From Escherichia coli (GTDB lineage: Bacteria; Pseudomonadota; Gammaproteobacteria; Enterobacterales; Enterobacteriaceae), in the NCBI RefSeq assembly GCF_016026235.1, contig NZ_CP065613.1: a stretch of 64,000 nucleotides of DNA; one strand, 5' to 3'. Under the pieces are notes generated by a model. That model was given only the letters and a program-made list of their open reading frames with translations, was not told where the DNA came from and did not search any database. Every line of letters starts with the position of its first letter. Positions within the stretch are counted from its first letter, which is position 1. The translations under genes and the position numbers were made by a program. Shown piece after piece: positions 9,034 through 36,583 of this stretch.

Positions 9034-10974
9034 TTAAACCGAGTATCTTTGTGAATATTTTTTCACGTTAGTATCAAGTGGCTGTGAGGACGCGAAAAAA
9101 TCCCCTTGCCCGCCTGTAACACCGCGCTGAATCAGGGTCTGCCACTCGCTTCGCGAACGCACGCCGGTGGCGTAAACCTGGGTGCTGGTCCCGGAGCAGG
9201 CTTCCACCAAGCTTTGAACCAGCAACTGGTTCTCCGTTCGCTTCTCAATGTTTCTGACCAGCCCCGGATGGAGCTTGAGTAACTCAACATTAAGTTCTTT
9301 GATCCAACTGGTGCTTACCAGCGTCAAACCAGCCTGGTTGACGGCTACCCGTACCCCTAAAGCATTCACTAAACGAATAACAGGTTGTAAACGACTGATA
9401 TGTTGACCTACATCGGCCTCTGCAAGTTCAATAATTATGCGTTTTCGTTGTGATTTTTCACATTGCATTAACGTATCGCGCAGCCAACGCTGAAAACGCG
9501 GGCGAATCAGCGACTCAACGGTAACCTGAATCGCCAGATTTTCCTCTGGCCAGTAACGCAATAGTGGAATAAGACGGCTGATTTGCAGACGGTCATACTC
9601 TTCCGATAAGCCAAACTGCAAGACCATCGGCATATACTCCGCCGAGCTAACCTCTTCATTACCATCGAAGATGCGGCACATGAGTTCGCGATGATGAACC
9701 TGACCTTCGCGAGTAACCGCCGGTTTTTGATAAAGGCGCGGGCCGCCGCGACTGAGCATTTGCTCGATAAGCGTACGCCAGCGAACATTACCGCGTCCTT
9801 TTTCAGGCAACGAGTCATCGTAAATAGCCCAGCTATTGCCGCCCTGCAATCCCGCATTACGCGTGGCAGACTCTGCATGTTCCATTACCTGCTCGGTATC
9901 CTGACCACTACGCCAGGCGCAGATACCAATGTGGATCATATCGTCGCGATCGAGCATTTTATTGTTCGGCAAGGTATCGACGGCTTTGATTAACTGACTG
10001 GCTATGCTCTCAGCCTCTTTTAACGTCCGGTGCGGTAACAACGCAGCAAAATCACTGCGGTGGTAACGCGCCAGCAGTGCGCCAGGGTAGCGCATCATAA
10101 ATGTCGATAGCAGATTCGTCAGAGTGAAGAACTGTTCTTCAACCTGGCTGTGCCCCCAGGTATCGCTCAACATATTGAAATCCGGCAGACGAATCATCAT
10201 CACGATCCCGTGGGTACCTACTTTCTCCTGATCTTCCAGTAACGTTGCTAACTGATTATCGAAAAAGAGTCGGTTATTGAGGCCGGTTTTCACGTCCTGT
10301 GCGGCATAAGAGCGGATCAGCGTATCAAGACGGCTGTGTTGTTCGCGTGCGTTCTGAATTTCACGAAGCAGCGTATCCAGCGCACTGCTGGTTCTGGGCG
10401 GCCATTCATAGATGGTTCCCAACACATTAGAGCCACGCTCACCGTTTAAGATACGAGTAGCCCGGGTTTCCAGCAATTCTTGCCCGGCAAGTTGCCGTTG
10501 TAACCAGCGTACCGCCAGAAAGAGCATAAGAATGATAAAGCCAATCGCCCCTGTGAGCGGCGCGGTGGTCATCAACGAATGGAAATAGTTGCCCATCGGA
10601 TCCTGATAAACCAGACGCAACGACATCCCCGGATGCTTTATCAACGGAACGCTCAGTTCACGAAACAGATCGCTGGTGCCAACCGGACGATAACTACCAT
10701 TTCTGGCCAGGGTATAAACCTGTTTATCACCATGCAGCAGGTCTACACGAACGATATCTGCCGACATCATTAATTCGGTAATTTGTGGCCTTAATGCGCT
10801 GAAGTCATTCGACACAAGGTGGGTATCAATCGCCGTCGCCACCGCCTGAACGCGATGACTAAACTTATACTGAATGGCGTTGTAGAAACTTAGCGAACAG
10901 CCCAGCAAAGTCACAAAAATTGTTAACCCGGTGAGCAGCGTAACAAAGGCCGAAAATTTCGTCGTTAATCTCAT
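9034..10974 (-). CDS. csrD: CsrD, degenerate GGDEF-EAL regulator of CsrB/CsrC turnover
   Basis: 646 aa; two N-terminal TM segments followed by GGDEF-like and EAL-like regions; position downstream of mreB upstream region. Confidence 0.9.
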   Translation of the reverse strand: MRLTTKFSAFVTLLTGLTIFVTLLGCSLSFYNAIQYKFSHRVQAVATAIDTHLVSNDFSALRPQITELMMSADIVRVDLLHGDKQVYTLARNGSYRPVGTSDLFRELSVPLIKHPGMSLRLVYQDPMGNYFHSLMTTAPLTGAIGFIILMLFLAVRWLQRQLAGQELLETRATRILNGERGSNVLGTIYEWPPRTSSALDTLLREIQNAREQHSRLDTLIRSYAAQDVKTGLNNRLFFDNQLATLLEDQEKVGTHGIVMMIRLPDFNMLSDTWGHSQVEEQFFTLTNLLSTFMMRYPGALLARYHRSDFAALLPHRTLKEAESIASQLIKAVDTLPNNKMLDRDDMIHIGICAWRSGQDTEQVMEHAESATRNAGLQGGNSWAIYDDSLPEKGRGNVRWRTLIEQMLSRGGPRLYQKPAVTREGQVHHRELMCRIFDGNEEVSSAEYMPMVLQFGLSEEYDRLQISRLIPLLRYWPEENLAIQVTVESLIRPRFQRWLRDTLMQCEKSQRKRIIIELAEADVGQHISRLQPVIRLVNALGVRVAVNQAGLTLVSTSWIKELNVELLKLHPGLVRNIEKRTENQLLVQSLVEACSGTSTQVYATGVRSRSEWQTLIQRGVTGGQGDFFASSQPLDTNVKKYSQRYSV

Positions 10975-11125: not shown

Positions 11126-12100
11126 ATGCAGGCGTTACTTTTAGAACAGCAGGACGGCAAAACTCTCGCATCAGTACAGACACTTGACGAAAGTCGCCTG
11201 CCGGAGGGCGATGTCACGGTTGATGTTCACTGGTCGAGCCTGAACTATAAAGATGCGCTGGCGATTACCGGTAAGGGAAAAATCATCCGTAATTTTCCGA
11301 TGATTCCTGGGATCGATTTTGCCGGAACTGTACGCACCAGCGAAGATCCGCGTTTTCATGCCGGTCAGGAGGTGTTACTCACTGGCTGGGGCGTTGGTGA
11401 AAACCACTGGGGTGGGCTGGCGGAGCAGGCGCGAGTGAAAGGTGACTGGCTGGTTGCCATGCCGCAAGGGCTGGACGCGCGTAAAGCAATGATTATCGGT
11501 ACTGCCGGTTTTACCGCCATGCTGTGTGTGATGGCGCTGGAAGATGCCGGTGTTCGCCCGCAGGACGGGGAGATTGTCGTGACGGGTGCCAGTGGTGGCG
11601 TCGGCAGTACCGCCGTGGCGCTGCTGCATAAGTTGGGTTATCAGGTCGTTGCCGTTTCCGGTCGCGAAAGTACCCATGAATATCTGAAAAGTTTAGGTGC
11701 TAGCCGTGTTCTCCCTCGTGATGAGTTTGCCGAATCCCGTCCTCTGGAAAAACAAGTCTGGGCTGGGGCAATTGACACCGTTGGCGACAAAGTGCTGGCA
11801 AAAGTGCTGGCGCAAATGAATTACGGCGGCTGCGTGGCGGCCTGTGGTCTGGCGGGTGGTTTTACTCTGCCAACCACGGTCATGCCATTTATTCTGCGTA
11901 ATGTCCGTTTACAGGGGGTGGATTCAGTGATGACGCCACCAGAACGCCGCGCACAAGCCTGGCAGCGACTGGTCGCCGATTTACCGGAATCATTCTATAC
12001 CCAGGCGGCAAAAGAGATATCTCTGGCAGAGGCACCGAAGTTTGCCGAGGCCATCATTAATAACCAGATCCAGGGTCGCACGCTGGTGAAGGTTAACTAA
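11126..12100 (+). CDS. acuI: Acrylyl-CoA reductase AcuI (YhdH), MDR-family NADPH-dependent oxidoreductase
   Basis: 324 aa ORF with zinc-free MDR / quinone oxidoreductase-like fold motifs (GASGGVGS). Confidence 0.9.
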   Translation: MQALLLEQQDGKTLASVQTLDESRLPEGDVTVDVHWSSLNYKDALAITGKGKIIRNFPMIPGIDFAGTVRTSEDPRFHAGQEVLLTGWGVGENHWGGLAEQARVKGDWLVAMPQGLDARKAMIIGTAGFTAMLCVMALEDAGVRPQDGEIVVTGASGGVGSTAVALLHKLGYQVVAVSGRESTHEYLKSLGASRVLPRDEFAESRPLEKQVWAGAIDTVGDKVLAKVLAQMNYGGCVAACGLAGGFTLPTTVMPFILRNVRLQGVDSVMTPPERRAQAWQRLVADLPESFYTQAAKEISLAEAPKFAEAIINNQIQGRTLVKVN

Positions 12101-12136
12101 CCATTTAGCAAGGAATAATAAGAGAGGGAACTCATT

Positions 12137-12301
12137 TTGAAATCATTATTCAATCGGTTAACGGGAAAAGCGGTTAGCCGGACAGCTTTCGTCGAACACC
12201 TTGGTCATGAAGTTGTACAACATCATCCAAACTGGAAAGTCATGATTTCGACTGACCATAAATTGATGCGCATTGATACTCCACTAAACAGCTATTATTG
12301 A
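12137..12301 (+). CDS. Candidate small ORF (54 aa, TTG start), unverified
   Basis: Read from sequence: SD-like agagagggaa 6 nt upstream of TTG at 12137, open frame to TGA at 12299-12301 ([54 protein letters not shown]); 37 nt after the acuI stop; codon usage is poor. Confidence 0.2.
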
Positions 12302-12769
12302 TACGCCTCCGTCGCCTGTTAGGTTTATGGTGCTTTGCCTGGGCGACGCTACGCTTAACCCCTTACTTATTTCTGGTACCATGAGGTGAATAATCTGATT
12401 TTATTTGACTACAAATTAATCACTCGGACGTATTTAATGCTGTGCATTGTCAGTCGGTTAATTTTGCGTGCTTTAGCATTCACATCTATCCAGACGATGC
12501 AGTGAAAATTGGGTAATCCCCAGCAACCGCTGCGTAATGTCGTCTATCTTGTCGCGATCCTGGCATCCCTACATTATTTGTGGTCTGTGAAGATTATCTC
12601 ATTGCAGCCCCTCATCTTCGCAGGGCTGGCTTTACAGCTTTTCACCTTACGTTATAAGAAGTTCCGTCGATGATGGCGCTAATTTCGTGAATTGTGCGGC
12701 TTGTTGCAAATTACACGGTGTTGAAGGTTATTTACATGTTAGCTGTTGATTATCTTCCCTGATAAGACC

Positions 12770-12813
12770 AGTATTTAGCTGCCAATTGCTACGAAATCGT
12801 TATAATGTGCGAC
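12770..12813 (+). promoter_or_regulatory. Putative accBC promoter (-10 TATAAT at 12801-12806) ahead of a long 5' leader
   Basis: Consensus TATAAT hexamer roughly 270 nt upstream of the accB start; accBC is known to have a long untranslated leader. Confidence 0.35.
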
Positions 12814-13077
12814 CTCGTCCTCCCTGACGCAGTTTTTGCGCTGCGGAAAAGGTGACATTGGCGCAACGAAGGTATATTTTGTTTTTTGCCGGAGGATAGC
12901 AGCAGATCGCTGCACAATGTCCGTCAAGTCTAACATTGACACTCTGGGGCAAAATAGACCGGCGTCCCGGCCTGCTGGAATTTATCGCTATGCATACAGC
13001 TGTCGGGGCATACGCTTTACAGACGGCGGTGAAACGCCTGTCACAATCACACTAAACAAAGAGTACGGAACCCACTC

Positions 13078-13548
13078 ATGGATATTCGTAAGATTAAAAA
13101 ACTGATCGAGCTGGTTGAAGAATCAGGCATCTCCGAACTGGAAATTTCTGAAGGCGAAGAGTCAGTACGCATTAGCCGTGCAGCTCCTGCCGCAAGTTTC
13201 CCTGTGATGCAACAAGCTTACGCTGCACCAATGATGCAGCAGCCAGCTCAATCTAACGCAGCCGCTCCGGCGACCGTTCCTTCCATGGAAGCGCCAGCAG
13301 CAGCGGAAATCAGTGGTCACATCGTACGTTCCCCGATGGTTGGTACTTTCTACCGCACCCCAAGCCCGGACGCAAAAGCGTTCATCGAAGTGGGTCAGAA
13401 AGTCAACGTGGGCGATACCCTGTGCATCGTTGAAGCCATGAAAATGATGAACCAGATCGAAGCGGACAAATCCGGTACCGTGAAAGCAATTCTGGTCGAA
13501 AGTGGACAACCGGTAGAATTTGACGAGCCGCTGGTCGTCATCGAGTAA
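13078..13548 (+). CDS. accB: Biotin carboxyl carrier protein of acetyl-CoA carboxylase
   Basis: 156 aa; Ala/Pro-rich linker; biotinylation motif [10 protein letters not shown]. Confidence 0.96.
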
Positions 13549-31174: not shown

Positions 31175-31211
31175 AATTCTTTTCTAATCTGCCGAACTTT
31201 AACCTAAAAAG

Positions 31212-31287
31212 TGGTGCTGATACCCAGAGTCGAACTGGGGACCTCACCCTTACCAAGGGTGCGCTCTACCAACTGAGCCATATCAGC
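31212..31287 (-). tRNA. thrV: tRNA-Thr
   Basis: Reverse complement reads GCUGAUAUGGCUCAGUUGGUAGAGCGCACCCUUGGUAAGGGUGAGGUCCCCAGUUCGACUCUGGGUAUCAGCACCA. Confidence 0.93.
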
Positions 31288-31299
31288 ACGCTAAATTTG

Positions 31300-31419
31300 A
31301 TGCCTGGCAGTTCCCTACTCTCGCATGGGGAGACCCCACACTACCATCGGCGCTACGGCGTTTCACTTCTGAGTTCGGCATGGGGTCAGGTGGGACCACC
31401 GCGCTACGGCCGCCAGGCA
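31300..31419 (-). rRNA. rrfD: 5S rRNA, proximal copy of rrnD
   Basis: Reverse complement matches canonical E. coli 5S rRNA (UGCCUGGCGGCCGUAGCGCGG ... GCCAGGCAU). Confidence 0.95.
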
Positions 31420-31512
31420 AATTCTGTTTTATCAGACCGCTTCTGCGTTCTGATTTAATCTGTATCAGGCTGAAAATCTTCTCTCAATCCGCCAAAACAC
31501 CTTCGGCGTTGT

Positions 31513-34412
<2,900 letters not shown>

Positions 34413-34595
34413 TCACAACCCGAAGATGTTTCTTTCGATTCATCATCGTGTTGCGAAAATTTGAGAGACTCACGAACAACTTGCGTTGTTCAGTGTTTCA
34501 ATTTTCAGCTTGATCCAGATTTTTAAAGAGCAAAACTTCGCAGTGAACCTTTGCAGGTACACTCTGAAGTATTTTTTATTTAATCACTACAGAGA

Positions 34596-34671
34596 TGGTG
34601 GAGCTATGCGGGATCGAACCGCAGACCTCCTGCGTGCAAAGCAGGCGCTCTCCCAGCTGAGCTATAGCCCC
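34596..34671 (-). tRNA. alaU: tRNA-Ala (UGC) in the 16S-23S spacer
   Basis: Reverse complement reads GGGGCUAUAGCUCAGCUGGGAGAGCGCCUGCUUUGCACGCAGGAGGUCUGCGGUUCGAUCCCGCAUAGCUCCACCA. Confidence 0.95.
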
Positions 34672-34713
34672 ATAACATGTAGTTAAAACCTCTTCAAATT
34701 TGCCGTGCAAATT

Positions 34714-34790
<77 letters not shown>

Positions 34791-34858
34791 GTAGAGGTTT
34801 TACTGCTCATTTTCATCAGACAATCTGTGTGAGCACTGCAAAGTACGCTTCTTTAAGG

Positions 34859-36399
<1,541 letters not shown>

Positions 36400-36583
36400 A
36401 AAAGTTTGATGCTCAAAGAATTAAACTTCGTAATGAATTACGTGTTCACTCTTGAGACTTGGTATTCATTTTTCGTCTTGCGACGTTAAGAATCCGTATC
36501 TTCGAGTGCCCACACAGATTGTCTGATAAATTGTTAAAGAGCAGTTGCGACGCGGCTTTCAGCTCACTGTCGCGAGGTGGCGT

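Follow-up and report, generated by a model that had tools for sequence, protein, structure and literature searches.

In Escherichia coli the genes acuI and accB are separated by an ORF-poor gap of 977 bp (positions 12101-13077 of the 64-kb window, the whole stretch of 64,000 nucleotides analysed here, whose numbering is used throughout). What does this gap contain? The initial annotation had described it as an unusually long non-coding interval without a convincing ORF, of the kind that often hides small RNAs, regulatory leaders or decayed genes. The analysis reported below makes it very probable that the interval consists of gene remnants, stemming from three or four lost genes, followed by the working regulatory region of accBC. 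Most of this content is already known, in the form of annotated pseudogenes and of the accBC promoter and leader; what is added here is that the pseudogene yrdF derives from a DUF1444-like gene and the pseudogene yrdE from a positional ortholog of msrQ.

Genomic setting of the acuI-accB interval

On its left side the interval is bordered by acuI (yhdH; 11126-12100, + strand), a 324-aa ORF so annotated in E. coli genomes, which has csrD (- strand, ending at 10974) as its left neighbour. On the right side it is followed by accB (13078-13548, + strand), an ORF also named in this way in E. coli genomes, and then by accC. Both the measured length and the gene calls at the two ends agreed with the gap as originally described. 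When a greedy set of ORFs of at least 120 aa was used, the gap was the third-largest in the window, the median gap being 57.5 bp. The larger stretches free of ORFs of at least 120 aa are located at 31208-34958 and 35325-36544. Only short ORFs were present in the interval, the longest of them having 89 aa, and the GC content was 39-47% as compared with 50-62% in the flanking genes, so that the lack of a convincing ORF and the local AT-richness were both borne out. The several imperfect inverted repeats noted earlier were reduced to two pairs, but these were weak, and a scan for terminator-like structures yielded none where 1.6 were expected.

The interval was found in 5420 of the 5426 complete E. 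coli genomes, with identities of 95-100%. Across the interval the window strain and an MG1655-derived strain are 98.8% identical without a net indel, and window coordinates are obtained by subtracting 3392358 from those of MG1655. The segment 12300-12770 had been regarded as lacking an assigned function. This turned out to be incorrect, because the pseudogenes yrdF and yrdE are already annotated there in NC_000913.3. After correction for the offset, the coordinates of the K-12 pseudogenes are identical to those of the fragments in the window, and nothing essential differs between them. Both were stated to be pseudogenes in a table footnote in J Bacteriol (PMC7648144), and the RefSeq K-12 record gives no product name for either. 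Literature searches on the intergenic region, and on a yedZ pseudogene in connection with accB, returned nothing relevant.

yrdE is a remnant of msrQ

The pseudogene yrdE (b4646) occupies positions 12280-12673 on the + strand (MG1655 3404638-3405031) and represents the 3' part of msrQ (yedZ) from about codon 68 to the end. A translation stitched together from the ORF pieces 12298-12384, 12386-12505 and 12509-12673 matched the NCBIfam model NF003831 (MsrQ) at positions 74-193 of 212 (E=6.2e-25). With a third of the protein absent, the match scored 88 bits and fell short of the full-length cut-off of 130 bits. When the stitched translation was tested for the Ferric_reduct family (PF01794), no Pfam match was obtained at 0.01. 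Protein identity was 69% to the 211-aa MsrQ of E. coli and 61-65% to the 199-aa MsrQ of other Enterobacteriaceae.

DNA alignment (A1) revealed, besides the truncation at codon ~68, one extra base near 12382 creating a +1 frameshift, a CGA to TGA change at 12503-12505, and a TGA codon at 12671-12673, three codons ahead of the ancestral stop. No intact msrQ frame (about 199-211 codons) was found in the remnant. Two of the three conserved histidines, His91, His151 and His164, which we take to be the haem ligands of MsrQ, have been lost: His91 and His151 are replaced by arginine, and His164 is retained. The partner gene msrP (Oxidored_molyb) is absent between acuI and accB in the window, and is present in six related loci. 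The remnant thus shows clear homology to MsrQ/YedZ, the haem-binding membrane subunit of the periplasmic methionine sulfoxide reductase MsrPQ, and lies at the same chromosomal position, but it lacks the first ~67 codons and msrP. Because of these losses, the frameshift, the two premature stops and the missing histidines, yrdE is a dead copy of msrQ, the working gene being located elsewhere.

In other strains PGAP describes the remnant as a frameshifted, N-terminally incomplete YedZ/cytochrome b pseudogene with an internal stop. Its labels vary, and include pseudogene, 'cytochrome b family protein' and a 124-aa 'sulfite oxidase subunit YedZ' (P0001).

The remnant is 82.8% identical to its counterpart in E. 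albertii, with indels, whereas acuI is 89.4% identical. At the third codon positions of acuI the divergence is 25.5%, and by this comparison the remnant appears to be drifting roughly neutrally. A 196-aa MsrQ (P0002) encoded by two metagenome contigs (L018:1-958 and L019:1-904) was rejected as evidence for an intact ortholog because the contigs are mosaics: the 3' third of msrQ and the spacer are 100% identical to the window (~12541-12813), and the flanks are ~65-80% identical. This pattern points to a chimeric assembly or to a recombinant organism.

yrdF originates from a DUF1444-like gene

The pseudogene yrdF (b4697; 12137-12279, + strand; MG1655 3404495-3404637) is a 5' stump of ~48 codons. 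Strain MB06233 has an intact gene of 276 aa (L003:1588-2418), whose start matches this region with 98.9% identity; of that full length, the window contains the first ~48 codons alone. The intact protein matched DUF1444 weakly and over the full length (E=0.0039, below the gathering score), and PRK13668 with E=8e-5. The candidate small ORF of the initial annotation is the stump of this gene: the 54-codon ORF at 12137-12301 is made up of the yrdF stump continuing out of frame into msrQ sequence. In some PGAP genomes the 54-codon ORF (L004:1588-1752) is called as a 'hypothetical protein' CDS, and the stump might conceivably be translated.

The full-length gene (276 aa) was found in E. albertii and in 670 of the 5426 E. 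coli genomes. E. albertii was also the only one of 100,044 species representatives (GTDB r220) in which a relative was detected, and a large protein collection contained only 11 YrdF clusters. A 63%-identical homolog (L009:3898-4731) adjoins genes of the KfrA_N, Aca2/YdiL, DUF7352 and ResIII-like types. Its location among KfrA-, Aca2- and ResIII-like genes suggests that yrdF travels on a mobile element. YrdF had no matches in PADLOC and none in PHROGs. Matches of yrdF to 'plasmids' were discarded, these being mislabelled chromosomes.

Two alleles of the yrdF-msrQ region

In the window allele codon ~48 of yrdF is joined to codon ~68 of msrQ. The long allele, represented by MB06233 (L003:1588-2586) and common to E. 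albertii and 670 of the 5426 E. coli genomes, contains intact yrdF with a terminator and a decayed msrP start (~15 codons) joined to msrQ codon ~101; these replace window positions 12280-12380. Since neither of the two can have given rise to the other, two independent deletions, both starting from a fuller ancestor, have to be assumed. The undeleted intermediate is provided by a metagenome contig (L011:1-2083; Logan SRR33454298) with the arrangement acuI-yrdF-terminator-msrP start, the latter including the Tat signal. Its acuI region is 85% identical to the window at the nucleotide level, and its YrdF shows 77% amino acid identity. A direct repeat, ATTGATAC, present at the yrdF/msrQ junction was considered as the cause of the deletion and rejected, both copies being still present.

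Gene order in related genera and the relocation of msrPQ

In Citrobacter enshiensis the order of genes is csrD, acuI-msrP-msrQ-accB-accC. Klebsiella aerogenes, Atlantibacter and Franconibacter have acuI-msrP-msrQ-aroQ-accB-accC, and in Kosakonia, where acuI is missing at this place, the order is msrP-msrQ-aroQ-accB. Window positions 12284-13077 are colinear with the Citrobacter sequence from nucleotide 203 of msrQ to the accB start (75.8% identity over 800 nt). Because of this colinearity and the gene order in the relatives, the msrQ remnant is the leftover of an ancestral neighbour of accB.

The functional msrPQ genes of E. coli lie in the arrangement hprRS-hiuH-msrPQ-zinT. In E. coli, msrPQ in the hprRS-hiuH arrangement has HprRS as its regulator, and in Salmonella the regulation is by Cpx (PMC10083560). 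At the nucleotide level the remnant is 78.2% identical to functional E. coli msrQ versus 61-68% to msrQ of other genera. This closeness to the functional E. coli gene fits a history in which the gene was duplicated or moved within the lineage and the copy that stayed behind then decayed. In Salmonella, presumably, msrPQ adjoins accB.

The Escherichia-specific C-terminal tail of MsrQ (LRSLFNRLRKQ..., L007:5580-5636) resembles the N-terminus of YrdF (window 12137-12160). In the protein comparison the score was reached in 5 of 5000 shuffles, and in the DNA comparison of the tail with the yrdF start the similarity was not significant (811 of 2000 shuffles). The likeness may be due to chance, or it may reflect an msrQ/yrdF junction created when msrPQ moved to the hiuH locus.

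The spacer and the accBC promoter

Downstream of the msrQ remnant there is a decaying spacer (12674-12744), which shows 88.7% identity to E. albertii and little conservation between genera. A strain carrying a kan cassette at 12713/12714 (yrdE-kan primers) was reported to have growth rate and cell dimensions like those of the wild type (bioRxiv 10.1101/359208). The spacer is followed by a promoter block (12745-12813, + strand), near-invariant in seven genera (alignment A3) and 98.6% identical to E. albertii, as compared with 89.4% for acuI. Promoter and leader together make up the last ~330 bp of the interval. Within 12300-12770, whose conservation had been proposed earlier as a check, the msrQ remnant thus diverged at a near-neutral rate, the spacer was poorly conserved, and the promoter block from 12745 onwards was near-invariant across seven genera.

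The promoter block contains a FadR-like sequence, CTGATAAGACCAGTA (12759-12773, + strand), which resembles the FadR consensus and which FadR might bind. Further downstream on the + strand there is a weak -35-like hexamer CTGCCA (12779-12784), and, after a 16-nt spacer, a -10 hexamer TATAAT (12801-12806) followed by the GC-rich discriminator GTGCGAC. The -10 hexamer was located exactly where the initial annotation had placed it. In the promoter scan this combination matched the sigma-70 hexamers at 10 of 12 positions, and it is invariant in the seven genera. Judged by its sequence and conservation, TATAAT at 12801-12806 is probably part of the sigma-70 promoter P1 of accBC, which would be the ancestral aroQ-accBC promoter. 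Transcription starting ~7 nt past TATAAT would produce a leader of ~265 nt, in agreement with the earlier estimate of ~270 nt. The transcription start data in the supplements of Kim 2012 included neither accB nor the expected coordinates. The accBC genes are reported to be under growth-rate and ppGpp control (PMC3896788), with which the GC-rich discriminator is consistent.

The accBC leader contains stumps of aroQ

Single-sequence folds and alifold placed a small 5' stem-loop (CGCAGU/GCUGCG) at 12828-12845 on the + strand. A hairpin occurs at the same place in each genus, with varying sequence. Neither the fold z-scores of the single sequences (-1.35 to +0.98) nor the alifold energy (-5.9 kcal/mol) indicated significant structure in the leader. 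A further conserved block (12852-12888, + strand), made up of GTGACA-N17-TATTTT and a subsequent T-run, scored 9 of 12 in the promoter scan, the hexamers being invariant and the spacer variable (A3). By its sequence this block could be either a second promoter or a U-rich element of the leader.

The rest of the leader includes two pieces of aroQ. A 5' stump on the + strand (12917-12937), comprising the start codon and ~7 codons, is colinear with Klebsiella aerogenes up to nucleotide 21 of aroQ with the ATG in register (A3). Taken alone, the alignment score of this stump was not statistically significant, and its assignment follows from the colinearity. The 3' stump (13009-13055, + strand) consists of the last 47 nt of aroQ (nucleotides 407-453) including the stop codon, and contains a hairpin (13022-13042). 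A tblastn comparison showed 14 of 15 residues identical to AroQ of Kosakonia and Franconibacter, and none of 500 shuffles reached the alignment score. Between the stumps, ~385 nt of aroQ are replaced by 71 nucleotides that could not be aligned (12938-13008). Nothing but nucleotides 1-21 and 407-453 is left of the intact ~150-codon gene for AroQ (type II 3-dehydroquinase, PF01220). The 22-nt aroQ-accB spacer with the accB ribosome-binding region (13056-13077, + strand) is identical in seven genera except for a one-base deletion in two, and identity to Klebsiella is 97% over the block 13009-13077.

The aroQ Shine-Dalgarno (SD) sequence upstream of 12917 has changed from AGGAGA to AGCAGA, and it is mutated in the three aroQ-less genera of A3. 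Other Gammaproteobacteria with the arrangement aroQ-accB-accC share with E. coli the invariant promoter block and, just before accB, the 47 nt and the spacer. In contrast to these, E. coli, E. albertii and Citrobacter enshiensis lack the body of aroQ and have a mutated SD sequence, and what remains serves as accBC leader only. The long accBC leader of E. coli can thus be interpreted as an aroQ gene that has lost its interior and still stands behind the ancestral promoter of aroQ-accBC. No description of such an origin was found in the literature searched for aroQ and accB in E. coli. An ORF of 62 codons (12917-13105) still begins at the old aroQ ATG and ends 28 nt within accB in another frame. 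Since the SD sequence is mutated in E. coli, its translation seems unlikely.

In the genera that possess aroQ, third positions are invariant in 10 of the last 15 codons versus 34 of the 135 codons elsewhere in the gene. Because of this constraint the end of aroQ appears to overlap an element needed for accB expression, and this overlap would explain why the 3' stump has survived. In MG1655 Term-seq data there is a single weak 3' end in the leader, at -63 relative to accB (~13015; MG1655 3405373), just before the hairpin at 13022-13042. It was classified neither as Rho-dependent nor as intrinsic (score 2.1, below 3). The 3' stump is near-invariant in seven genera and synonymous sites are constrained where aroQ persists. 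On these grounds the segments 12852-12888 and 13009-13055 might be the cis target of AccB autoregulation or of the growth-rate control of accBC, an idea that we put forward tentatively and consider rather doubtful.

Alternative explanations

The msrQ-like sequence could, in principle, have arrived by horizontal transfer or have been copied as a fragment from the functional yedZ gene instead of descending from an ancestral neighbour of accB. Its greater nucleotide identity to functional E. coli msrQ than to msrQ of other genera might be quoted in favour of such an origin. However, the two E. coli copies would be just as close if the copy at the hiuH locus had been derived from the acuI-accB locus within the lineage. 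Moreover, not only the remnant but all sequence from there to accB is colinear with the msrQ-accB region of Citrobacter, and msrPQ is found at exactly this position in six other genomes. The extent of homology points in the same direction: the similarity to functional E. coli msrQ ends at codon ~195, whereas the similarity to Citrobacter runs past the stop codon and through the spacer. An origin by transfer or by fragment duplication is therefore very improbable. Slightly less credence still can be given to an unannotated small RNA or small protein encoded in 12300-12770 that took over the decayed gene. The 54-codon ORF still has the ribosome-binding region of yrdF, some PGAP genomes list it as a CDS, in one E. 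coli record a 124-aa 'YedZ' protein was built from the remnant, and two weak promoter-like sites were seen on the minus strand (12602-12573 and 12322-12294). Against these observations, the remnant differs by 17% from E. albertii, indels included, as neutral sequence does, its reading frames vary between strains, and in 12% of the strains a different deletion removes 12280-12380. No Rfam family matched the pseudogene part at E<=10, the terminator scan of the interval found none, and the published Term-seq tables mention neither yrdE nor yrdF. For the acuI-accB interval as a whole, Rfam at E<=10 (two sub-threshold matches) and Term-seq provided no small RNA.

Is there, instead, a regulatory RNA in the leader itself? 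The hairpin and T-run at 12814-12888 might form an attenuator that controls read-through into accBC and releases a short leader RNA, a counterpart of Yersinia Ysr190. The Rfam model of Ysr190 (Yersinia sRNA 190; RF02764) indeed aligned over its full length to 12781-12880, ending at the T-run; a small hairpin is present at this place in every genus despite the sequence changes, and the block GAAGGTATATTTTGTTTTTT is near-invariant. The match, however, reached 25.3 bits as compared with a gathering score of 66 (E=0.55), and it begins upstream of the accBC -10 hexamer, so that much of it is conserved promoter DNA. The scan for intrinsic terminators found nothing in the leader, the folds were not significant, and Term-seq showed no 3' end near -190 or the T-run, its sole end being the one at -63. 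With its GTGACA and TATTTT hexamers unchanged and the 17 nt between them varying, the block resembles a promoter more closely. We consider an attenuator unlikely, and the Yersinia 'sRNA' Ysr190 may be nothing more than the aroQ/accB transcript's 5' end. Among the possibilities raised at the outset, decayed genes and a regulatory leader were thus confirmed, and a small RNA was left without support from Rfam, from Term-seq and from the near-neutral divergence. The transcript data, suggested earlier as a check, yielded no 3' end named for yrdE or yrdF and the one weak end in the accBC leader.

Proposed history of the locus

The evidence argues for gene remnants in front of the accBC regulatory region, and we infer the following order of events. 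The ancestor of the Enterobacteriaceae would have had the arrangement acuI-msrP-msrQ-aroQ-accB-accC, with one conserved promoter driving aroQ-accBC. In the Escherichia lineage the DUF1444-like gene yrdF was probably inserted between acuI and msrP, and a second copy of msrPQ at the hiuH locus would have made the local copy dispensable. A deletion could then have fused yrdF at codon ~48 to msrQ at codon ~68, and the remnant presumably gained its frameshift and stops afterwards. In what appears to be a separate event, the middle of aroQ was lost and the first ~21 nt and the last 47 nt were left. The old aroQ promoter (TATAAT at 12801-12806) would now feed accBC via a leader of ~265 nt. Selection seems to act on three parts of the leader, namely the promoter block, the GTGACA/T-rich block and the last ~70 nt ahead of the accB start.

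Discussion

The analysis removes a false lead: the acuI-accB interval is not a hiding place of a new RNA or gene, and as such it carries little wider biological weight. It also illustrates that automatic annotation is inconsistent, the same remnants being called pseudogene, 'hypothetical protein' or 'YedZ' depending on the genome. The locus records that msrPQ, which adjoins accB in other Enterobacteriaceae, has changed its place in Escherichia, which is consistent with the different regulators, HprRS in E. coli and Cpx in Salmonella. The aroQ stumps are a minor historical addition, giving a simple history for the unusually long accBC leader. If the conserved segments of the leader were indeed a cis target of autoregulation or growth-rate control, E. 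coli would retain the long leader for the sake of these elements. The conserved leader blocks mark the place where to look for the unexplained autoregulation by AccB.
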